NCBI GenBank assembly: GCA_035656915.1
Contig: DASRRJ010000018.1
Coordinates: forward strand, 49,816-113,815
DNA length: 64,000 nt
From: Anaeromyxobacteraceae bacterium
Lineage (GTDB): Bacteria > Myxococcota > Myxococcia > Myxococcales > Anaeromyxobacteraceae
Reading direction: 5' to 3'
A program made the translations under genes and the position numbers. Numbering within the stretch: the stretch's first letter is position 1; each line of letters starts with the position of its first letter. The notes beneath the pieces are model-generated. The model worked only from the letters and a program-made list of their open reading frames with translations, made no database searches and was not told where the DNA came from. This document shows, piece by piece, positions 7,633 through 18,841 of the stretch.

Positions 7633-8229
7633 TCAGTCGAGCAGCCCCTGCTCCCTCGCCAGTCTTGCCAGCCGTTCCTTCAGCCGCTCGAAGCGCTTGG
7701 AGACCGCGTCGGGGGTCGGCGCGCTCCCCTCGGCGGCGACGACGCCGGCGATCTCGGCCCAGGAGAGCTGCTGGTCGAGCCGCAGCGTGAGGAGCGACTG
7801 GTCCTCGGCGGAGAGGCTGGCGCGCAGGCTGGCGAGGGCGTCGCGCTGCCGCTCCACGCGGATCGCCGTGCCGGTGCGGACCTCCTCGGCGAGGGCCGAG
7901 GCCTCGCCGGTGGCGAAGGGGCGCGCCCGTCGGCGCCAGGCCTCGTCGCGCAGGTTGAGCGCGGCGTCCCAGGCGATGCGGTAGGCCCAGGTGCGAAGCC
8001 CGGCCTCGCCGCGGAAGCGGGGCAGCCCCTTCCACAGGTTCTCGGCGAACTGCGAGAAGGCGTCGCGCGCGTCGGCCTCCTCGCGCAGCACCGCGCGCAG
8101 ATAGCGCAGGATCTGGGGACCGAGCGCGCGGATGGCCGCGGTGGCCGCGCCCTCCCCGTCCCCGGCGCCGAGGAGCGCTCGCACCCGCGCCTCCAGCGTC
8201 TCCAGCTCGCCCGGCCCGGCGTCGCTCAC
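7633..8229 (-). CDS. ECF-type RNA polymerase sigma-70 factor
   Basis: Sigma-70 region 2 (ILRYLRAVLREEADARDAFSQFAENLWKGLPRFRGEAGLRTWAYRIAWDAALNLRDE) and region 4 (LSAEDQSLLTLRLDQQLSWAEIAGVV) are present. The start was set at a GTG (VSDAGPGELE...) that overlaps the upstream kinase stop as GTGA. The longer ORF start would overlap the kinase extensively. Confidence 0.75.
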   Translation of the reverse strand: MSDAGPGELETLEARVRALLGAGDGEGAATAAIRALGPQILRYLRAVLREEADARDAFSQFAENLWKGLPRFRGEAGLRTWAYRIAWDAALNLRDEAWRRRARPFATGEASALAEEVRTGTAIRVERQRDALASLRASLSAEDQSLLTLRLDQQLSWAEIAGVVAAEGSAPTPDAVSKRFERLKERLARLAREQGLLD

Positions 8230-11171
8230 CGCGCCGGCTCCTGCGGACCGAGCCGCCGCCGCAGCGCCTTCACCTCGGCCAGGTAGGGGGCGTCGGCATC
8301 GGCGCGCGCCCAGAGGCGGAGGAGGTGGTCCGCCGCCTCCCGGGCCCCGTGGCGCTCTCCCAGGCGCTCCCGGGCCAGCGCCTCCAGGTAGAAGCTCCGG
8401 GGGTACATCCAGCTGCGCGCCACGCCGCCCGGCACCCGCCGGAACCGCTCGAGCGCGGCGGCCGCCTCCGCGTCCCGTCCGCTCGCGAGGGCCCACTCGC
8501 CCAGGAGCCAGAGCGCCGGCCCGCGCACGTCGAGGCTGGGGCGCTCCGCGAGGGCCCGCACCGAGCCCAGCGCCGCGGCCCGCTCGCCGCGCCGCCACGC
8601 CGCCGCCGCGTCGAAGAGCTGCCGGCCCTCGCCGGGCGGGAGCTCCGCCGCCGCGGCCTTCGCCTCCTCGGCGGCGCCGCTGAGCTCGAGCGCCAGCGGC
8701 AGGCCGCCCCAGTGCGGCTTCGGCGCCTTCCAGAGCCGGAGCGCCTCGGCGCGAGCCGCGTCCTGCGAGCGGTCGCCGAGCAGAAAGGCCAGGCGCTGCG
8801 CGGAATGCTCGGGGGTCATGGGCAGCTCCCGCGGCAGGCCGTCGAGGGCGCGCTGCGCCTCGCGCAGCCGCCCCTGGTAGGAGAGCTGGTTCGCGAGCAG
8901 ATAGAGCCCCTTGATCCGCTCCAGCCCCTGGCCGCGCTCCGCCGACGGGCGGACCAGGGCCTCGGCCTCGGGGTAGCGCTCGGCGAGGGCCAGCGCGTCC
9001 GCCAGCGCGGCGCGGGAGTGATGGCCGCCGTCGAGCTCCAGCGCGCGGCGGTCGTCGGCGACGGCGTCCTCCATCCGACCCGCGGCCTCGGCCCCCTGCG
9101 CGCGGGCGCGCCAGGCGGCGGCGCTCGCGGGCGCCTGCTCCACCCAGCGCCGGCTGCGCGCCTCCAGCTCGGCGCCGCGGCCCATCGAGAAGAGGCTGTC
9201 CATCAGGTGGAGCAGCGCCGGTTCCCAGGTGGGGTCGAGCGCCAGGGCCCGCTCGAAGAGCGGCAGCGCCTCCTCGGTCCGGCCCTCGTGGAAATAGAGG
9301 TCGGCCGCCATGTAGAGGGCGTCCTTGTCCTGCGGGTAGGCGGCGACGGCCTGTGCGTAGAGCCCGTGCGCCTCCTCGTTGCGCCCGTCCATGTGCGCCT
9401 TCCAGGCGCGGATGAGGAGCCGCTCCTTCTCCGGCGCCCGCTGCGCGTCACGCAGCGCCTCCTCGATCTCCGCCTTGCGGGTGGCGGCGTCGAGCCCGGT
9501 GAACTCCCCCAGGTAGGCGATCTGGTAATGGGCGAGGCTGAAGGAGGGGTCGGCCGCGATGGCGCGCCGGAACCCGGCGAGCGCCTCCTCGTACCGGGTG
9601 GCGTCCATGGCCTGCTCGCCGTGGAAGTAGGCAGAGTAGGCCTCGAAGCTGCCGGTGGTGGCGGCGGCCACCTGCACCCGCGAGGCCTTCACCTCGGCCG
9701 GCGTCTCGCGCAAGAGCGTGCGGGTCCGCTCCGAGAGCCGGTCGATCATGCCGGGGACGCTCGCCTTGCCGCGCCCCTCCTCCTTGAGCGTGAAGAGGTA
9801 CTCGCTCGTGTCGGGGTCGAGCGCCTTGAGCTCGATGGCGTAGAGCTGGTCGAAGCGGTGGATGGTGGCGAGCACCAGGGCCCGCGCCCCGGCGCTGCGG
9901 GCCACCTCCCGGCCGAGCGGCTCGTCCACCCCGCCCGCGCTCTCCTTCCCGAGCTGGCGGAGGAGGTCGAGCATGCGCACGCGGGTGAGCACCGCGAGGC
10001 GGCGCGACTGCTCGAGGGAGGTGATGAGCATGCCGGAGAGGCCCGACAGCTCCGGGTCGCCGGTCTGGTTCACGAAGTCGGCGACCGCCACGGTGATCCG
10101 CTCGGACGGCACCGCCGCCAGCTCCCGAGGGGGGGCGACGCCGCGGCGATAGGCCAGCCCCAGCGCGAGGCCGGCGACGAGCAGGAGCGCCAGGGCCACG
10201 GGCCACCACCGGGCGAGCCTCCGGTGGGCTCGCACCGGGCCGCCGGGGGCGGGCGGGGTGCGCTCGAGCTCGCCGCGGAAGGCGGCCAGCGCCGCCGCCA
10301 CGTCGCCGGCGTCGCGGGGGCGGTGCACCGGGTCCTTCGAGAGCATGCGGGCGATGAGGGTGCCCACCGCGGGGACGCCGGGCACCTCGAGCGCCGGCGG
10401 CGCCCGCACCCTGCTGGCCGCCTTGCCGCGATCGCCCTCGGGGAAGGGGAGCCGCCCCGAGAGCAGCCGGTAGAGCATGACCCCCAGCGCGAAGACGTCG
10501 GTGCGCTCGTCCTCCGGTGCCCCGCGCCACTGCTCCGGGGCCATGTAGGCCGGGGTGCCGCCGTCCACCCGTCGCCGGCCGAAGGCGTGGGCGAGGCCGA
10601 AGTCGAGCACCTTCACCTGCCCGTCGGGGCAGAGGAAGACGTTGCCCGGCGTGAGGTCGCGGTGGACCACGCCCTGCCGGTGGGCGCAGGCGAGCCCCTC
10701 CGCGACCGCGTGGGCGATCCGCAGCGCCTCGGCGATCCCGAGCTCCCCCTGCCCGAGGCGCGCGGAGAGCGTCTGACCGCGCAGGAGCTCGAGCACCAGG
10801 TAGGGCCCGGCCTCGCAGCGCCCGACGTCGTAGAGGGTGACGATGTTGGGGTGGGAGAGGCGCGCCGCCGCCTCGGCCTCGCGCAGGAGCTGCTCGTCGA
10901 CCGTGCCGCGGTCGGTGCTCGCGCGCACCGCCTTGAAGGCGACCCCGCGGCCGAGCTCGGTGTCGCGCGCCTCCCAGACCTGGCCGAAGCCGCCACGGCC
11001 GAGCTCCGAGAGGAGCTCGAACCGGCCGACGATCGCCCCGGGCCGGAGCACCTCGTCCCAGGCCGAGCCGCGCGCTCCCTCGGGGAGGCGCGCCAGCTCG
11101 TCCAGGATGGATGACAGCCCTTCGGGCACGCGGGCCTCCGTCGGAAGCACCGCGTAGCCTAACCGGGGCAC
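8226..11171 (-). CDS. Ser/Thr protein kinase with TM segment and C-terminal TPR repeats
   Basis: The Hanks kinase motifs are present: GRGGFGQVW, AFK, HRDLTPGNV, DFGLA and APE. A single TM follows (WWPVALALLLVAGLALGLAY), then roughly 600 aa of TPR-like repeats. The exact start is uncertain (GTG at 11171 is followed by a rare TTA codon). Confidence 0.85.
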   Translation of the reverse strand: MPRLGYAVLPTEARVPEGLSSILDELARLPEGARGSAWDEVLRPGAIVGRFELLSELGRGGFGQVWEARDTELGRGVAFKAVRASTDRGTVDEQLLREAEAAARLSHPNIVTLYDVGRCEAGPYLVLELLRGQTLSARLGQGELGIAEALRIAHAVAEGLACAHRQGVVHRDLTPGNVFLCPDGQVKVLDFGLAHAFGRRRVDGGTPAYMAPEQWRGAPEDERTDVFALGVMLYRLLSGRLPFPEGDRGKAASRVRAPPALEVPGVPAVGTLIARMLSKDPVHRPRDAGDVAAALAAFRGELERTPPAPGGPVRAHRRLARWWPVALALLLVAGLALGLAYRRGVAPPRELAAVPSERITVAVADFVNQTGDPELSGLSGMLITSLEQSRRLAVLTRVRMLDLLRQLGKESAGGVDEPLGREVARSAGARALVLATIHRFDQLYAIELKALDPDTSEYLFTLKEEGRGKASVPGMIDRLSERTRTLLRETPAEVKASRVQVAAATTGSFEAYSAYFHGEQAMDATRYEEALAGFRRAIAADPSFSLAHYQIAYLGEFTGLDAATRKAEIEEALRDAQRAPEKERLLIRAWKAHMDGRNEEAHGLYAQAVAAYPQDKDALYMAADLYFHEGRTEEALPLFERALALDPTWEPALLHLMDSLFSMGRGAELEARSRRWVEQAPASAAAWRARAQGAEAAGRMEDAVADDRRALELDGGHHSRAALADALALAERYPEAEALVRPSAERGQGLERIKGLYLLANQLSYQGRLREAQRALDGLPRELPMTPEHSAQRLAFLLGDRSQDAARAEALRLWKAPKPHWGGLPLALELSGAAEEAKAAAAELPPGEGRQLFDAAAAWRRGERAAALGSVRALAERPSLDVRGPALWLLGEWALASGRDAEAAAALERFRRVPGGVARSWMYPRSFYLEALARERLGERHGAREAADHLLRLWARADADAPYLAEVKALRRRLGPQEPAR

Positions 11172-11199
11172 CAGCGCCCCGGCAGGCCATGTGGGGGCT

Positions 11200-14100
11200 C
11201 TAGAGGAGGCCCGGCTTCCCCTGCTTCCAGCGCTCGAGCTCGGTGGTGAGCAGGGCGACGTGCTCCTGCTCCTCCGCTGCGAGCTCCTTGTAGAGCTCGC
11301 GGGCGGCCGAGCCGGCCGGAGCCTTCTCGACGTTCTCGGTGAAGAACTTCACCGCGCGCTGCTCGAAGAGGATGGCGATCTGGAACAGGCTCGCCGGGTC
11401 CTCCGGGCGGTGGTCGAGGCCGGCGAAGATGGCCGCGGTGCCGATGCGGAAGCCCGCCGAGGGGGGCGGGACCTCCACGTGGTAGCGCCGCTGCAGCGTC
11501 GCCATGTGCTCGGTCTCCATCCCCGCGAACTTGCCGAACAGCTCGCGCAGCACCGGGTCGGACGCCTCCTTGGCCGCCTTCGTGTAGAAGGCCATGCCGC
11601 CGAGCTCGATCTCGAAGGCCACCCGCACGGCGTCGAGGGCGGCGCCCTCGACCTTGCGGTCGTCGAGCGGCGCGAGCTTGCCCTCGCCGCAGATCGGGCA
11701 GAGGCCGTACGGGAAGGCGAAGCCCTCGCTCACCTTGGCGCACTTCTCACAGCGCCAGGACACCTGCGCGGTGGCGCAGCAGATGTACTCCTCGTCGCCC
11801 TCGAGGGGGCGGTGGCACTTCGGACAGGTGCGCACGGGCTCCTCCAGCGCTCCGGCGAGCGCGGTCGCGCCGGCCGGCGCGGGCTTCACCTGGACGGGCG
11901 GCTGGAAGGCCGCCGCCTCCTCGGCGGTGACCGGCCAGCTCTTCTTGCCCTCCTTGAGCCAGGCGGCGATGGAGCGCGCGGCGCGGCGGCCGGCGCCCAT
12001 GGCCAGGATCACGGTGGCGCCGCCGGTCACGATGTCGCCGCCGGCGAAGACGCCGGGCAGGCTGGTGGCCTGGGTGGACTGCGGCTTGCCGTCGTCGGCG
12101 GCGATGTTGCCCCACTTGTTGAGCGCGAGGCCGGGGGTGGACTCGGTGACGATGGGGTTCGCCTTGGTGCCGAGGGCCGAGATGACCGTGTCGCACTCGA
12201 GCGTGTGGAACTCGCCCGTGCCGACCGGCTTGCGGCGCCCCTTCTCGTCGGGCTCGCCGAGCACCATGCGCTCCACCTTCATGCCGGTGACGTTGCCGTC
12301 GTCGTCGGCCAGGATGGCGATGGGGCCGTGGAGGAAGAAGAACTCGATCCCCTCCTCCTTGGCGTGCCGGATCTCCTCGATGCGGGCCGGGGCCTCGGCC
12401 TCGGAGCGGCGGTAGACGCAGCGCACCGTCGGGGCGCCGAGCCGCTTCGCCACGCGCAGGCAGTCCATGGCGGTGTTGCCGGCGCCGATCACCACCACGC
12501 TCTTGCCGAGGCGGATGGGGGTGTCGAGGTAGGGGAACTTGTCCCCGCCCATGAGGTTCACGCGGGTGAGGAACTCGTTGGCGCTGTAGACCTGGCCCGC
12601 GTTCTCGCCGGGGATGCCGAGGAAGGCCGGGGCTCCGGCGCCGACGCCGAGGAACACCGCGTCGTAGCCCTTCTCCTCGAGGAGCTGCGGGACGGTGAAG
12701 GTCTTGCCGATGACCTTGTTGGTCTCGATCTTCACGCCCGAGTCGCGCAGCTGCTTCACCTCGCGGGCGATGATGTCGCGCGGGAGGCGGAAGGACGGGA
12801 TGCCGTACTGGAGCACGCCGCCCACCACGTGGAGCGCCTCGTAGACCGTGACGTCACAGCCGAACTTCACGAGATCGGCGGCGGCGGCCAGGCCGGCCGG
12901 GCCGGAGCCGCAGATGGCGACCCTGCCGAGCCGGTCCTGCGCCCGGAACACCGGCGGGGAAGCCTTGGGCATGGCGGCGTTGTCGCCCACGAACCGCTCC
13001 AGGCGGCCGATGCCCACCGACTCCATCTTCTTGTTGATGATGCACTGCGACTCGCACTGCGTCTCCTGCGGGCAGACGCGGCCGCAGACCGACGGGAAGG
13101 CGTTCGACTCGCGGATCACCGCGGCGGCGCCGTCGATGTCGCGCACCAGCAGGTGGCGGATGAAGCGCGGGATGTCGATCGACACCGGGCAGCCGGCCAC
13201 GCAGGTGGGCTTCGCGCACTGGATGCAGCGCTCCGCCTCGCCGAGGGCGTCCTGGAGCGAGTAGCCCAGGTTCACCTCCTTGAAGTTGCGGGCGCGCTCG
13301 TAGGCGTCGCGCTCCGGCATGTGCGCCTGCTTGGGCGCGAGCTCCTTCAGCTTCTTGTAGTTGCGCTTCTCGTCCTCGAAGAGCTGCTTCTCGAGGTTGC
13401 AGACGTGCGCGTAGTCCTGGTTGGCGGCCGCCTCCTGCTCCTTGAAGCGGCGCTGGCGGGCGATGAGCTCCTTGAAGTCCACCTTGTGGCCGTCGAAGTC
13501 AGGGCCCTCGACGCAGGCGAACTTGACCTTGCCGTCCACGGTGACGCGGCAGGAGCCGCACATGCCGGTGCCGTCCACCATGATGGCGTTGAGGCTCACC
13601 ATGGTCTTCACGCCGAAGGGGCGGGTGGTCTCGACGCAGGCGTTCATCATCGGCAGCGGGCCGATGGCGACGACCAGGTCGGGCTTGTCCTTCTCGCAGA
13701 TCTCCTTGAGCGCCTGGGTGACGAAGCCGGGCTTGCCGTAGCTGCCGTCGTCGGTGCAGACCACCAGGTCGTCGCAGTGCTTCTTGAACTTGTCCTCCCA
13801 GAACACCAGGTCCTTGTTGCGGAACCCGATGACGCCGGTGGTGCGGCAGCCGGCCTCCTTGAAGGCGCGCAGCTGCGGGTAGACCGGGGCGACGCCGAGG
13901 CCGCCGCCGACGAGCACCACGTGGCCGAGCTTGCCGACGTGCTGGGGCAGCCCGAGCGGACCCACGAAGTCGGCGAACTCGTCGCCTTCCGCGTAGTTGG
14001 TCATCATCTCGCGGGTCGTCTTGCCGAGCGCCTGGATCACCATGGTGATGGTGCCCTTCTCCCGGTCGAAGTCGGCGACGGTGAGCGGGATGCGCTCGGA

Positions 14101-14223
14101 GCCGTCGTGCAGACGCAGCATCACGAAGTGCCCGGGCTGGGCGGCGCGGGCGACGTCGGGGGCGTCGACTTCCCAGAGGAAGGTGGTGTCGGAGAAGGCT
14201 TGGCGGCGGACGATCCTGGTCAT
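11200..14223 (-). CDS. Multidomain oxidoreductase: NfnA/SudB-like FNR module + NfnB/GltD-like FAD/NAD(P) + 2x[4Fe-4S] module + Zn-ribbon + rubrerythrin/ferritin-like diiron domain
   Basis: The ORF was trimmed to Met30 (ATG at 14223, GAGGA about 10 nt upstream; MTRIVRRQAFSDTTFLWEVDAPDVA matches the sulfide dehydrogenase/NfnA N-terminus). The FAD/[2Fe-2S] part ends with CGSCRV...C. Ferredoxin-type CxxCxxC...CP motifs follow, then Rossmann GSGPAGLAAA and GAGNTAMD motifs typical of GltD. The C-terminus has CPKCH...CEKC and CPICGEG zinc ribbons. Paired E..EH motifs (FAGMETEHMA, ELAAEEQEHVALL) are diagnostic of a rubrerythrin-like four-helix diiron domain. Confidence 0.75.
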   Translation of the reverse strand: MTRIVRRQAFSDTTFLWEVDAPDVARAAQPGHFVMLRLHDGSERIPLTVADFDREKGTITMVIQALGKTTREMMTNYAEGDEFADFVGPLGLPQHVGKLGHVVLVGGGLGVAPVYPQLRAFKEAGCRTTGVIGFRNKDLVFWEDKFKKHCDDLVVCTDDGSYGKPGFVTQALKEICEKDKPDLVVAIGPLPMMNACVETTRPFGVKTMVSLNAIMVDGTGMCGSCRVTVDGKVKFACVEGPDFDGHKVDFKELIARQRRFKEQEAAANQDYAHVCNLEKQLFEDEKRNYKKLKELAPKQAHMPERDAYERARNFKEVNLGYSLQDALGEAERCIQCAKPTCVAGCPVSIDIPRFIRHLLVRDIDGAAAVIRESNAFPSVCGRVCPQETQCESQCIINKKMESVGIGRLERFVGDNAAMPKASPPVFRAQDRLGRVAICGSGPAGLAAAADLVKFGCDVTVYEALHVVGGVLQYGIPSFRLPRDIIAREVKQLRDSGVKIETNKVIGKTFTVPQLLEEKGYDAVFLGVGAGAPAFLGIPGENAGQVYSANEFLTRVNLMGGDKFPYLDTPIRLGKSVVVIGAGNTAMDCLRVAKRLGAPTVRCVYRRSEAEAPARIEEIRHAKEEGIEFFFLHGPIAILADDDGNVTGMKVERMVLGEPDEKGRRKPVGTGEFHTLECDTVISALGTKANPIVTESTPGLALNKWGNIAADDGKPQSTQATSLPGVFAGGDIVTGGATVILAMGAGRRAARSIAAWLKEGKKSWPVTAEEAAAFQPPVQVKPAPAGATALAGALEEPVRTCPKCHRPLEGDEEYICCATAQVSWRCEKCAKVSEGFAFPYGLCPICGEGKLAPLDDRKVEGAALDAVRVAFEIELGGMAFYTKAAKEASDPVLRELFGKFAGMETEHMATLQRRYHVEVPPPSAGFRIGTAAIFAGLDHRPEDPASLFQIAILFEQRAVKFFTENVEKAPAGSAARELYKELAAEEQEHVALLTTELERWKQGKPGLL

Positions 14224-14375
14224 TGTTCTAGGGTCCTCGCAGTAGCCCCGAAACGGTCCAATTCCCGCTCGGGGTGAACCTTCGTACGCGAACACGCCGG
14301 CTGTGGTCAAATGGGCGTAAACTGGACGGGAAAGGTCCGGTTAGAGACCCGCGATTTCACTCCGAGCGGGAGCGG

Positions 14376-15461
14376 TCACCAGCGCTCGTCAGCCCCTTTT
14401 GGGGCTAGCGGCCAGGGAGGCGCGGAACGGCCGTTTATCGTCGTCCCTCCGTGGAAGAAGGGGGCGCCGTTGGCGATGAAGTCGGCCGGGAAGTCGAGCC
14501 GGGGGGCGGTGAGGGCGTCGAGGCGGGCCACCTGTCCGGGGGTGAGCCGGACGTCGGCGGCGCCGAGGTTGTCGTCGAGCTGGGCCAGGGTGCGGGCGCC
14601 GATGATGGTGGAGGTGACCCCCGGGCGGCCCTGTACCCAGGCGATGGCCACGCGCGACACGGTGGTGCCGAGCTCGGCGGCGATCTCCCCGAGCGCGTCG
14701 AGCAGGTCGTAGGTCTTCTCGCCGAGGTTGCGGGTGGCCCAGTCGCCCCGGCCGGCCTGCTGCCGCCCGTGCTCCTCGCGCCGGTACTTGCCGGAGAGCG
14801 CGCCGCTCTTGAGCGGCGACCAGGGGGTGACCCCCATCCCGAGCTCGCGCGCCATCGGCACCAGCTCGCCCTCGACGGTGCGCTCCAGCAGCGAGTACTC
14901 GACCTGGATGGCGACCAGCGGGGACCAGCCGTGAAAGCGCGCCAGCAGCTGCGCCTCGGCGCACTTCCAGGCGGGCGTGTCGGAGAAGCCGACGTAGCGG
15001 ACCTTGCCCGCGCACACCAGGTCGTCGAGCGCGCGCATCGTCTCGTCGATGGGCGTGGTGGCGTCCCACGAGTGCATCCAGTAGAGGTCGACGTAGCCGG
15101 TCTGCAGCCGGCGCAGGGACTGCTCGCAGGCGGCGACGAGCGACTTCCGGCTGGCGCCGCCGCCGTTGGGATCGCCGGGGTAGAGGTTGGAGAAGAACTT
15201 GGTGGCGAGCACCACCCGGTCGCGCTTCTCGGGGTACCGCCCGAGGTGGTCGCCGATGATCTTCTCGGAGTGGCCCTTGGTGTAGGCGTTGGCGGTGTCG
15301 ATGAAGTTGCCGCCGCGCTCCAGGAAGCGGTCGAGGATGGCCTCGGAGTCGGCCACGCTCGAGCCCCAGCCCCAGTCCTCGCCGAAGGTCATGGCGCCGA
15401 GGCAGAGCGGGGAGACGCGCAGGCCGGAGCGGCCCAGGGTGACGTAGTGGTCGAGGGGCAT
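14376..15461 (-). CDS. Aldo/keto reductase family oxidoreductase
   Basis: 361 aa. The N-terminal LGRSGLRVSPLCLGAMTFG, IDTANAY...GHSE, GKVRYVGFS and the substrate loop are typical of AKR (Tas/YghZ-like). Confidence 0.9.
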   Translation of the reverse strand: MPLDHYVTLGRSGLRVSPLCLGAMTFGEDWGWGSSVADSEAILDRFLERGGNFIDTANAYTKGHSEKIIGDHLGRYPEKRDRVVLATKFFSNLYPGDPNGGGASRKSLVAACEQSLRRLQTGYVDLYWMHSWDATTPIDETMRALDDLVCAGKVRYVGFSDTPAWKCAEAQLLARFHGWSPLVAIQVEYSLLERTVEGELVPMARELGMGVTPWSPLKSGALSGKYRREEHGRQQAGRGDWATRNLGEKTYDLLDALGEIAAELGTTVSRVAIAWVQGRPGVTSTIIGARTLAQLDDNLGAADVRLTPGQVARLDALTAPRLDFPADFIANGAPFFHGGTTINGRSAPPWPLAPKGADERW

Positions 15462-17365: not shown

Positions 17366-18688
17366 CTAGTGGCGCCGGCGGCGGCGCCGTCGGTGCGACG
17401 GCGGAGCGCCCTCCGCCCCGGGCTCCTTCGGCTGAGCCGTGCTGGGTCGCCGCTCGCCGGGGGCGAGAGGGTGCGCGGACGCGGGCGCGGCCGGGAGGCG
17501 CGTGACGTAGGTGACGACCGGGCCGGTCGGCTCGCGGCGGGGGGGATGGCGCGGGGCGGTCGCGCCTCCCCGGCCGTTACCACGCGATGGGGCTGCTGGA
17601 GGTGGCGGGCGGCGCGAGGGCTGCGAAGCGGGCGCGCCGCCCCGGACCTGTTCGGGCGGCCGGGAGGGCGTGGCCGCTGGGGGCGGCGTGTGGTGCGGCG
17701 GCGGGTGCGGCTTGGTGGCCCCTCCCCGGCCCTCCCCACGCGGTGGGGAGGGAGTGACGGCGCGCTGCTGGCCACGCTGCCCGTGCTTTTCGCCGCGCGC
17801 GCGCTGCTCGCCCCTCGGCTCCTGGCGCTGACCGCGCTGTTCGCGCTGCTCGCCCCTCGGCTCCTGCCGCTGACCGCGTTGTTCGCGTTGCTCGCCCCTC
17901 GGCTCCTGCCGCTGACCGCGCCCGCCCCGATGCTGCGGCTCCGGCGCCGGCCTTCCGCTGGGCACGAAGTCGGGGGTGAGCTCGCGGCGCACGTAGGCGC
18001 GCCAGATCTCGCGGGCGTCGCCGTTGGCGGCCTGCACGGCCGGGTCGAGCGGCGCGAAGAAGCGGCGGAGGGTCTCGAGGTCGCGCTCGAAGAAGCGTTC
18101 GGCCTGGCTGTTGTGCGCCGCGCCCACCACCTGCGGGAAGTCGATGATGGTCGGGCCGTTCCAGGCCATCAGCACGTTGTAGGGCGAGAGGTCGCCGTGG
18201 ATGAGGTCGCAGGCGAGCATCCGCACCACCTGCTGGCGCAGGTCGGCGTAGTGCTCGGCGGCGCGCTCGCGCGGGAGGACGGCGTCCACGAGCCGGGGCG
18301 CGGCGTGCCCGTCGGCGTCCACCACCGCCTCCATGAGCAGCACCCCTTCGTAGAACATCACCGGCCGCGGCACGCGCACCCCGGCGGCGTGGAGTGAGTA
18401 GAGCGCCTCCGATTCCTTGGCCTTCCAGGCCTCCTCGGCGGCGCGCTGGCCGAAGCGGCTGCCGCGGACCATGGCCCGCTGGGTGCGGCTGTCGCGCACC
18501 TGCCGCCCCTCCTTGTAGGCCGCGTTGTTGTGGAAGCTTCGCGCGTGGAGGTCCTTGTAGACCTTGGCGGCCACCACCTCGCCGGCGTGCTGCACCAGCC
18601 AGATGTCGGCTTCCTTGCCGCTCTTGAGGCGCGCGACGACCGCTTCGATGACGCCGTCGGCGAGGAGTTGCTGGAGAGGATCGGACAT
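17366..18688 (-). CDS. RIO-type atypical Ser protein kinase with long low-complexity Arg/Pro/Gly/Gln C-terminal tail
   Basis: The ORF was trimmed to Met21 (ATG at 18688). It has a GKEADIWLV nucleotide-binding region, LIHGDLSPYNVLM (catalytic loop) and IIDFPQ (metal-binding DFxQ), which are hallmarks of RIO kinases. The C-terminal 190 aa contain (QEPRGEQREQRGQR)x3, encoded by a 42-bp tandem repeat. Confidence 0.75.
   Translation of the reverse strand: MSDPLQQLLADGVIEAVVARLKSGKEADIWLVQHAGEVVAAKVYKDLHARSFHNNAAYKEGRQVRDSRTQRAMVRGSRFGQRAAEEAWKAKESEALYSLHAAGVRVPRPVMFYEGVLLMEAVVDADGHAAPRLVDAVLPRERAAEHYADLRQQVVRMLACDLIHGDLSPYNVLMAWNGPTIIDFPQVVGAAHNSQAERFFERDLETLRRFFAPLDPAVQAANGDAREIWRAYVRRELTPDFVPSGRPAPEPQHRGGRGQRQEPRGEQREQRGQRQEPRGEQREQRGQRQEPRGEQRARGEKHGQRGQQRAVTPSPPRGEGRGGATKPHPPPHHTPPPAATPSRPPEQVRGGAPASQPSRRPPPPAAPSRGNGRGGATAPRHPPRREPTGPVVTYVTRLPAAPASAHPLAPGERRPSTAQPKEPGAEGAPPSHRRRRRRRH
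17803..17923. repeat. 42-bp tandem repeat, about 2.8 copies (gctgctcgcccctcggctcctg[g/c]cgctgaccgcg[c/t]tgttcgc), inside the RIO kinase 3' region
   Basis: Read directly in the sequence. Copy 2 differs from copy 1 at 2 positions and copy 3 is truncated. On the minus strand it encodes the 14-aa repeat QEPRGEQREQRGQR. Confidence 0.85.
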
Positions 18689-18841
18689 GGTCTTGGCCCG
18701 CGCGGGGGCGGGAGGCGAAGGACTAGAGGACCGCTCGGGCCGGGTCAAGGGCGCTGCGGCGCCCCTTCGCGAGCGCTCCCCGTCAGGCGGGTGGCCGATC
18801 GCGTGGCCGGGTGGGAGCTTTGGCTACAGGGAGGTGGAAAA

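Follow-up and report, generated by a model that had tools for sequence, protein, structure and literature searches.

Flavin-based electron bifurcation has its simplest model systems in the Nfn enzymes, which are seen as belonging to anaerobes. In rubrerythrin, electrons enter through the rubredoxin domain. A 2019 review described four Nfn fusion patterns, with the NfnA-NfnB fusion among the known forms (PMC6405883); an Nfn enzyme with a rubredoxin-like/diiron tail is absent from these four patterns. Reverse rubrerythrins carry short-spaced rubredoxin domains with a 12-residue spacing (PMC7482061), C. difficile FdpF, built by domain fusion, works as a self-contained NADH:O2 oxidoreductase that reduces O2 without extra partners (PMC6033852), and 'Rub-Bfu' is a predicted complex of rubrerythrin with a bifurcating core (PMC9304861). 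Here we analyzed a gene that joins an Nfn-like core to a rubredoxin-like/diiron module, located in a 64-kb stretch of Anaeromyxobacteraceae DNA (hereafter "the window"). Our best explanation, to which we assign a probability of roughly 0.45, is that core and module would form a peroxide or O2 reductase fed by NAD(P)H and probably exchanging electrons with ferredoxin.

The gene occupies positions 11200 to 14223 (minus strand) as one uninterrupted reading frame of 1007 codons, from an ATG at 14223 to a TAG stop at 11200-11202. When opened at an upstream TTG the ORF covers 11200..14310; the ATG is the actual start. The resulting 1007-aa protein matches an annotated Anaeromyxobacteraceae MAG protein of the same length (100% identity) and more than 120 orthologue clusters (approx. 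1000 aa, ≥76% identity). One frame kept GC3 values of 0.95-1.0 over the entire ORF, which indicates that a hidden frameshift is absent, so that the single polypeptide proposed in a first-pass annotation of this DNA stands; Pfam matches for the NfnA-like, NfnB-like and diiron domains all fell within the one ORF. dN/dS was <1 in every region (0.065 for the ferritin domain as compared to the closest relative), but GC3 near 1.0 compresses dS, and we give these ratios no weight. Neither a scan for promoters and terminators (10900-14600) nor an Rfam scan of the whole window yielded matches.

The first-pass annotation had also considered this architecture undescribed, which proved wrong. Over its entire length, the protein falls into the curated NCBIfam equivalog family NF009413/PRK12775, which bears the name 'putative trifunctional 2-polyprenylphenol hydroxylase/glutamate synthase subunit beta/ferritin domain-containing protein' (1994.4 bits against a cutoff of 1895; residues 1-1007 aligned to positions 1-1006 of the 1006-position profile), the identical MAG protein was already annotated and the family is widespread. 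Searches of other genomes, as had been suggested, recovered the orthologue clusters described above, and the tail module was present in at least 424 species genomes. The model for the fused Nfn 'pattern B' (NF009414/PRK12778) scored 996.2 bits against this protein, below its cutoff of 1103, and a split 791-aa homologue from Betaproteobacteria also scored below that cutoff (1000 bits). No characterisation of any NF009413 family member (biochemical, genetic or expression data) was found in the searchable literature. Overall, the window gene is a typical, previously annotated member of a catalogued family and the result for the window itself is modest; what is new here is the pairing of Nfn-like core and module, the contexts of the split loci, the ligase sister clade, the rubredoxin-like reading of the Cys-rich segment, the COG1633 affinity of the helical domain and the finding that the adjacency to a kinase and a sigma factor is not conserved.

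The Nfn-like core showed Pfam matches to NAD_binding_1 (residues 104-196), DHODB_Fe-S_bind (212-249), Fer4_20 (310-417) and Pyr_redox_2 (434-744). Its NfnA-like module (aa 1-280; 13384..14223, minus strand) combines an FNR-like FAD/NAD-binding fold with a [2Fe-2S] motif made up of Asp and three Cys (D217, C222, C225 and C237), all invariant in 32 orthologues; it matched NF004862 with 390 bits and 5jca_S with 311 bits, with the motif MVDGTGMCGSCRV...FACVEGP aligned. A helical connector follows at approx. aa 250-298 (its end part at 13330..13383, minus strand), placed by alignment and by a low-confidence structure model with a helix at 251-284; H273 and C275 are invariant. The NfnB-like module (aa 299-758; 11950..13329, minus strand) carries FAD/NADPH Rossmann domains and two [4Fe-4S] motifs (C333/C336/C341/C345, and C380/C384/C390/C394 inside CPQExQCE). 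These motifs aligned with those of 4ylf_B (493 bits) and 5jca_L (477 bits). The fusion of NfnA and NfnB recognized by the first-pass annotation was thus borne out, with all cofactor motifs kept as compared to the solved Nfn structures, and the core is 70-87% identical across Myxococcota and Beta-, Alpha- and Gammaproteobacteria.

GenBank records name such proteins NADPH-dependent (homotetrameric) glutamate synthase, and the NfnB-like module does match TIGR01316 ('gltA') above its cutoff (529 bits against 472). However, the closest solved relatives are Nfn enzymes rather than GOGAT small subunits (493 vs 288 bits), and neither a GltB-like large subunit nor an amidotransferase domain was found in the protein or in adjacent genes. 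We consider the glutamate synthase assignment, a legacy of GltD similarity, highly improbable.

To define the association between core and module, we use 80 loci with upstream sequence; three further loci that begin at a contig edge lie outside this set. An Nfn-like gene was located directly 5' of the module in all 80 loci, either fused to it (52 loci; Myxococcota, Thiocystis and Telmatospirillum) or, with the module as a separate gene of approx. 211 aa, split from it (28 loci; Burkholderiales and Rhodospirillales). In the split locus L001, stop and start of the two genes overlap by 4 nt. Module and Nfn-like core hence constitute an obligate genetic partnership, encoded either as a single polypeptide or by two neighbouring genes. 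A metagenome scan with a single module protein returned 8 loci, among them one distant module (34% identity) without a redox neighbour, which suggests that strict linkage to Nfn is limited to the close clade.

Neighbours in the split loci and in other lineages belong to ferredoxin-linked pathways. In 19 loci the module sits between nfnAB and PFOR, accompanied by a DHOD-like gene; four loci have it within a nif cluster, and in Thiocystis the neighbours are Etf/acyl-CoA dehydrogenase genes. The PFOR and nif placements, as well as the fusion of the module to the gene on either side, would also fit a module that carries electrons or serves as a docking adaptor, taking the place of ferredoxin or recruiting it, and that connects the low-potential branch of Nfn to PFOR, nitrogenase-related proteins or Etf. 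We regard such a role as improbable, as no linked partner gene was found in the Anaeromyxobacteraceae loci and the potentials of rubredoxin-type and diiron centres normally lie far above that of ferredoxin. In the window, no enzyme of a ferredoxin-linked pathway was found within the 64 kb, which counts against the peroxide/O2 reductase reading as well.

The first-pass annotation had pointed to a membrane Ser/Thr kinase and an ECF sigma factor beside the gene. Both are present downstream on the same strand in the window, i.e., a Ser/Thr kinase with TPR repeats (8226-11129, minus strand) and a Sigma70_r2 protein (7633-8229, minus strand), but this arrangement is not conserved elsewhere. In A. 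dehalogenans 2CP-1, a kinase/sigma pair occurs approx. 4 kb away, on the opposite strand and with another gene order. No neighbour cluster was shared across 60 loci, and we rejected a functional operon with the two genes.

Core and module are separated by a Pro/Ala-rich linker of approx. 40 residues (aa 759-798; 11830..11949, minus strand), which differs in sequence and length among orthologues and has pLDDT values below 50 at residues 782-797; the gene boundary (stop/start overlap) of the split lineages also falls within this region. It is followed by an eight-Cys segment (aa 799-852; 11668..11829, minus strand) with the pattern CxxC-x11-CC-x8-CxxC-x13-CxxC. In 45 close homologues none of its Cys residues (C800, C803, C815, C816, C825, C828, C842 and C845) varies and, like the diiron ligands, they are mostly kept in homologues as distant as 30% identity; C825, C828, C842 and C845 are invariant even at 22-30% identity. 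The double zinc ribbon initially proposed for this segment held only in part. The Cys pairs are present, but the second half (WRC825xxC828 ... C842PxC845) resembles a rubredoxin-like domain, with a match to PF21349 (RUBY_RBDX) of 22.4 bits, under the gathering cutoff of 26.5, and weak similarity to the rubrerythrin rubredoxin domain (1ryt/1b71 residues 141-181; 1b71 residues 141-177). Moreover, the CxxC-x13-CxxC spacing is close to that of the rubredoxin domains of reverse rubrerythrins. Because this pair resembles the rubredoxin-like domain of rubrerythrin, iron is plausible as its metal, although it could be zinc. C800, C803, C815 and C816 may form a second metal site.

The remainder of the tail (aa 861-1007; 11203..11643, minus strand) models as a ferritin-like four-helix bundle (helices 861-886, 890-914, 945-967 and 973-1000). 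As anticipated in the first-pass annotation, the six diiron ligands are present (E873, E903xxH906, E954 and E985xxH988), and all are invariant in the 45 close homologues. Pfam matches were found to Rubrerythrin (866-914) and Ferritin_2 (945-997); PF02915 (Rubrerythrin) scored 25.9 bits for the full-length protein and 38.9 for the isolated domain (threshold 22.8). The diiron four-helix part of the earlier assignment was thus upheld, but both profile and fold place the domain nearer to bacterioferritin-type and COG1633 proteins than to canonical rubrerythrin; its four helices include a long B-C crossover, and it resembles 2oh3 and 2fzf. In D. vulgaris rubrerythrin, an additional helix-C glutamate (ExxE motif) serves as a seventh, redox-switching ligand; this glutamate is absent from the helical domain of the window protein. 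This absence, the nearer relationship of the bundle to uncharacterised COG1633 proteins and bacterioferritins, and the sub-threshold rubredoxin match with a metal that could be zinc count against the peroxide/O2 reductase reading. A full-length AlphaFold2 model (32 orthologues) reached a pLDDT of 64.8 and a pTM of 0.45, too poor to place the docking of the tail. Iron storage was judged unlikely, since the module has a rubredoxin-like entry domain and is obligately paired with a reductase.

One possible explanation for a diiron domain linked to a reductase could be a small-molecule oxygenase or hydroxylase (cf. BoxB, PaaA, COQ7, MiaE), with the Nfn core as its NAD(P)H-dependent reductase component. 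The domain is, however, only a minimal bundle of approx. 140 aa, against which ferritins, Dps and catalases score as high as or higher than COQ7. Furthermore, conserved catabolic neighbours were not found in the Anaeromyxobacteraceae loci, and PFOR and nif are the dominant contexts elsewhere. Overall, these data make an oxygenase quite unlikely.

In a sister clade, the module is fused to an aryl-CoA ligase of the benzoate-CoA-ligase family, an enzyme that needs no electrons, and this fusion too counts against the peroxide/O2 reductase reading. The occurrence of the same module on two unrelated enzymes (Nfn core and ligase), its flexible linker to the core and its modular distribution, resembling that of a regulatory domain, would be compatible with a sensor of O2, peroxide, redox state or iron that switches its partner enzyme rather than turning over substrate. 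Genes around the locus in Ramlibacter (among them hemerythrin, Crp/Fnr and UbiTUV-like genes) also suggest an oxygen-responsive physiology. On the other hand, catalytic rubrerythrin-type proteins typically show such full conservation of a rubredoxin-like entry site and of every diiron ligand, and in Rubrivivax the ligase fusion directly follows an Nfn-like gene, so that electron supply may be the common factor. To our knowledge, a ferritin-like diiron domain of this type acting as a sensor is without precedent, and we consider a sensor unlikely.

The NF009413 protein is an NfnA-NfnB type iron-sulfur flavoenzyme (FAD, [2Fe-2S], FAD, 2x[4Fe-4S]) linked flexibly to a dedicated partner module, which consists of a rubredoxin-like Cys4 centre, four more Cys and a COG1633-type diiron bundle. 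A role in passing electrons from NAD(P)H and ferredoxin via the diiron site to peroxide or oxygen is plausible, with peroxide or O2 as the likeliest electron outlet of the tail. In favour of it are the full-length equivalog match, the conserved Nfn motifs, the pairing of core and module at all 80 loci, the high identity of the core across phyla, the invariant rubredoxin-like Cys pair, the diiron ligands in a ferritin-like fold, the ferredoxin-linked neighbours in other lineages and the examples of FdpF and Rub-Bfu. Electrons from NAD(P)H would enter the Nfn core, which probably also exchanges electrons with ferredoxin, and part of the flux would pass along the Nfn Fe-S chain to the Fe(Cys)4 centre and on to the diiron site, where H2O2 and/or O2 would be converted to water, the reaction known from rubrerythrins and reverse rubrerythrins. 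The enzyme would bring its own peroxide/oxygen sink and may thereby keep an oxygen-labile, low-potential ferredoxin/NAD(P)H node usable in facultative or microaerobic bacteria such as Anaeromyxobacter. An electron-bifurcating transhydrogenase activity dependent on ferredoxin, as in NfnAB, may also be present; the ferredoxin-linked neighbourhoods of the split loci are its only indirect support.

We also considered an uncharacterised flavin-based class ('Nfn-Rub'), in which the module would sit at the ferredoxin site of the Nfn core and oxidation of NADPH, NADH and/or ferredoxin would be coupled to the formation of water from O2 or H2O2; we view this proposal as rather unlikely. If it were true, the built-in sink would let aerobes and microaerobes keep low-potential ferredoxin metabolism linked to PFOR, nitrogenase and Etf. 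An Nfn subfamily that is always paired with a rubredoxin-like/diiron partner, in facultative or microaerobic hosts and in some cases beside PFOR, nif or Etf genes, offers a concrete, testable idea of how such metabolism may be sustained under oxygen, for which the fused and split forms represent a natural experiment.

Compared to the NF009413/PRK12775 family, the window protein shows the same architecture end to end and no structural difference, the family name being a placeholder derived from domain similarities. With known Nfn enzymes (structures 4ylf and 5jca, and the enzyme of C. autoethanogenum) it shares the NfnA-then-NfnB order and all FAD, [2Fe-2S] and 2x[4Fe-4S] motifs, but it adds approx. 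250 aa of linker and rubredoxin-like/diiron tail; moreover, known Nfn hosts are strict anaerobes, whereas the hosts of this family are facultative or microaerobic Myxococcota and Proteobacteria. The COG1633 ferritin-like proteins (PDB 2oh3, 2fzf and 1vjx) are stand-alone, uncharacterised structural-genomics proteins with neither a Cys-rich segment nor an Nfn partner. Reverse rubrerythrins (revRbr/rubperoxin) of Clostridium and Clostridioides resemble the tail in placing a short-spaced rubredoxin-like CxxC...CxxC domain N-terminal of a diiron bundle. The window protein, however, has four extra Cys before the rubredoxin-like part and a COG1633/bacterioferritin-like bundle with a long B-C crossover, and while the reductase of reverse rubrerythrins is NROR with rubredoxin, that of the window family is of Nfn type and covalently attached or encoded by the adjacent gene. 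FdpF and Rub-Bfu share the concept of uniting, within one polypeptide or operon, a diiron site with a rubredoxin-type centre and a pyridine-nucleotide oxidoreductase, but their reductase folds are unrelated to that of the window protein, and the diiron fold of FdpF is of the metallo-beta-lactamase type, unrelated to the bundle found here. Rub-Bfu is itself a prediction only, to which the putative 'Nfn-Rub' class would be analogous.

The gene at 11200-14223 (minus strand) occupies a single ORF (11200..14310), which the ORF listing of the window opens at an upstream TTG; from the ATG at 14223 to the TAG stop at 11200-11202 it encodes 1007 aa, and the coordinates of the first-pass annotation were exact. 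The ATG start is confirmed by P0121, a 1007-aa protein from an Anaeromyxobacteraceae MAG (280-kb contig) that is 100% identical to the window protein, and is further supported by orthologues of ~1000 aa (>120 clusters, identity ≥76%), among them A. dehalogenans 2CP-1. As GC3 was 0.95-1.0 in one frame along the entire ORF, no frameshift is concealed in the gene.

Pfam matches of the protein were, in order, NAD_binding_1, DHODB_Fe-S_bind, Fer4_20 and Pyr_redox_2, followed by partial matches to Rubrerythrin and Ferritin_2. Compared to PDB entries, residues 2-265 matched the small subunit of NfnI (311 bits to 5jca_S) and residues 299-758 matched NfnB/NfnL (493 bits to 4ylf_B, 477 bits to 5jca_L). 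Alignment to these Nfn structures preserves the D/C/C/C motif of the [2Fe-2S] cluster, the two [4Fe-4S] motifs (CPQExQCE among them) and the glycine motifs for FAD and NADPH, in agreement with the proposed fusion of NfnA and NfnB in one polypeptide. The helical connector between these parts (aa 250-298, about 13330-13476, minus strand) carries residues D270, H273, C275, L277 and E278, which are invariant in 32 orthologues and have no counterpart in separate-subunit Nfn structures. A Pro/Ala-rich linker of ~40 aa separates the NfnB-like part from the tail module, i.e., the final 216 aa, which contain eight Cys (CxxC-x11-CC-x8-CxxC-x13-CxxC, the second half rubredoxin-like) and then a ferritin-like domain. 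The diiron ligands on which the initial interpretation depended (E873, E903xxH906, E954 and E985xxH988) are all present and, like the eight Cys, invariant in 45 close homologues; among homologues with 22-47% identity, the second-half Cys remain invariant at all four positions, and most of the remaining ligands are nearly invariant. Neither of the conditions set initially for refutation, absent diiron ligands or a hidden frameshift, therefore applies.

The suggestion that this architecture was undescribed did not hold, as residues 1-1007 align to profile positions 1-1006 of NCBIfam NF009413 (PRK12775) with 1994 bits (cutoff 1895); PRK12778, the plain fused-Nfn model, scored 996 bits, under its cutoff. 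NF009413 is named [quoted passage not shown], and orthologues are labelled "NADPH-dependent glutamate synthase" in GenBank and JGI; we consider it very improbable that the protein is a true glutamate synthase. A literature search for work on NF009413/PRK12775 found no paper. The four subunit patterns of a 2019 Nfn review include none with a ferritin-like tail (PMC6405883), and the paper on the A. dehalogenans genome goes no further than noting "four rubrerythrin homologs" and a lack of catalase (PMC2330069). The gene thus belongs to a family that is catalogued but uncharacterised, of which it is a typical member and one already annotated; the original observation is confirmed and its interpretation is supported in part.

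In a scan of species-representative genomes the module was found in at least 424 genomes; among 1.84 billion representatives searched exhaustively, it had just 452 relatives. Upstream sequence was available for 80 of the retrieved loci, and in every one of them the module is immediately preceded on its 5' side by an Nfn-like gene that shares 70-93% identity with the core of the window protein. Module and Nfn-like gene form a single fusion in 52 loci (Anaeromyxobacteraceae, other Myxococcota, Thiocystis violacea, Telmatospirillum and one unclassified MAG) and are split in 28 (Burkholderiales, other Betaproteobacteria, Defluviicoccus and Rhodospirillales), where the module is a gene of its own (~211 aa); in one locus (L001) its start and the Nfn gene stop overlap by 4 nt. 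A neighbour-joining tree of the core showed that fusion state tracks clades and that two or more lineages carry the fused form. Anaeromyxobacter oryzisoli SG63 carries the fused gene on two scaffolds of one assembly, with equal match statistics and equal upstream ORF lengths, representing either a recent duplication or assembly redundancy.

Gene neighbours differed among lineages. In 19 split loci from Betaproteobacteria (L037, L044, L054, L056 and 15 others; e.g., L056 5608-12312) the order is nfnAB-like, module, PFOR (1210 aa) and DHOD-like (335 aa), often with fumarate reductase (frdAB) and malic enzyme genes upstream; this conserved operon has the appearance of a pyruvate node linked to ferredoxin, in hosts that are not generally classed as strict anaerobes. 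A nifV-like gene precedes the split pair in four loci from Rhodospirillales, Defluviicoccus and one metagenome contig (L002, L047, L067, L078). In L002 (1-8033), the only one of these with Pfam-annotated gene calls, the pair lies inside a nif cluster (DUF269, ferredoxin, NifQ, HesB-like, NifV-like, NifW) and has genes for a 468-aa FAD oxidoreductase and NnrS after it. These nif-associated placements hint that the pair may supply nitrogen fixation with electrons or shield it from oxygen. In Thiocystis, EtfB-like, EtfA and acyl-CoA dehydrogenase genes follow the fused gene. The Anaeromyxobacteraceae loci compared shared no functionally telling neighbour, and a search of the 64-kb window found none of the PFOR, nif or Etf-type partners of other lineages.

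A Ser/Thr kinase gene with TPR repeats and one predicted membrane span (8226-11129, minus) and a Sigma70_r2 (ECF-type) gene (7633-8229, minus) do follow on the same strand, as reported initially, and overlap by 4 nt (window 7633-11129); the two are probably translationally coupled. In A. dehalogenans 2CP-1, however, a similar pair lies ~4 kb from the orthologue, on the opposite strand and in reversed order, and the adjacency to the fusion gene in the window is treated as incidental. Elsewhere in the window, a RIO1-type kinase gene (17366-18748, minus) encodes a C-terminal tail rich in Arg, Gln and Glu, within which 2.9 copies of a 42-nt tandem repeat (17800-17921, 95% match) code for recurring QREQRGQRQEPRGE units.

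In Ramlibacter, Rubrivivax and other Burkholderiales, a sister clade of the module (>120 clusters, 51-56% identity) is joined to an enzyme of the benzoate-CoA-ligase family, at its N-terminus, in a protein of about 715 aa. The genes for this fusion, an apparently uncharacterised architecture, lie in clusters for aryl- or acyl-CoA metabolism. In a Rubrivivax MAG (L096 9001-11133) the ligase fusion immediately follows an Nfn-like gene and precedes genes for enoyl-CoA hydratase, SDR, a second small ferritin-like protein and acyl-CoA dehydrogenase. In Ramlibacter tataouinensis (L095 9001-11172) no Nfn-like gene was found within 9 kb, and the surrounding genes are 4-hydroxybenzoyl-CoA-reductase-like, hemerythrin, UbiD/X, UbiTUV-like and Crp/Fnr. 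As the same module is borne by this enzyme, two other functions stay in play: the module may be a sensor, which we consider unlikely, or the diiron domain may be an oxygenase with the Nfn-type core as its reductase, which seems less likely still.

The most economical reading, to which we assign a probability of roughly 45%, is that the Nfn core feeds the diiron site of the module, where H2O2 and/or O2 is reduced. The core would oxidise NAD(P)H and exchange electrons with ferredoxin; by homology and precedent, electrons would then enter the tethered or co-encoded module via its rubredoxin-like centre and pass to the diiron site for reduction of H2O2 and/or O2. Precedents for these later steps are reverse rubrerythrins (PMC7482061), FdpF (PMC6033852) and Rub-Bfu, itself predicted (PMC9304861). 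That the module is instead a carrier replacing ferredoxin is somewhat less probable than either function suggested by the ligase fusions. If diiron reduction does occur, the module could shield a redox node that works at low potential and is oxygen-labile, in hosts that are facultative or microaerobic.

The best Pfam match of the Cys segment was PF21349, the rubredoxin-like domain of rubrerythrin, at 22.4 bits over WRCEKC...CPIC (under the gathering cutoff of 26.5), and the rubredoxin domain of D. vulgaris rubrerythrin was matched weakly by phmmer and by the family profile. The 13-residue spacing in the module is similar to that of the short-spaced rubredoxin domains found in rubrerythrins and reverse rubrerythrins (PMC7482061). 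AF2 modelled the module (pLDDT 75.9) as a four-helix bundle whose B-C crossover is long, and a profile search with the module matched 2fzf (5e-13), 1vjx, 2oh3 and bacterioferritins. Given these matches and the model, the initial description of the tail as rubrerythrin-like is right in the broad Pfam sense and in its domain order, which is the same as in reverse rubrerythrin; the bundle, however, is not of the canonical rubrerythrin kind.
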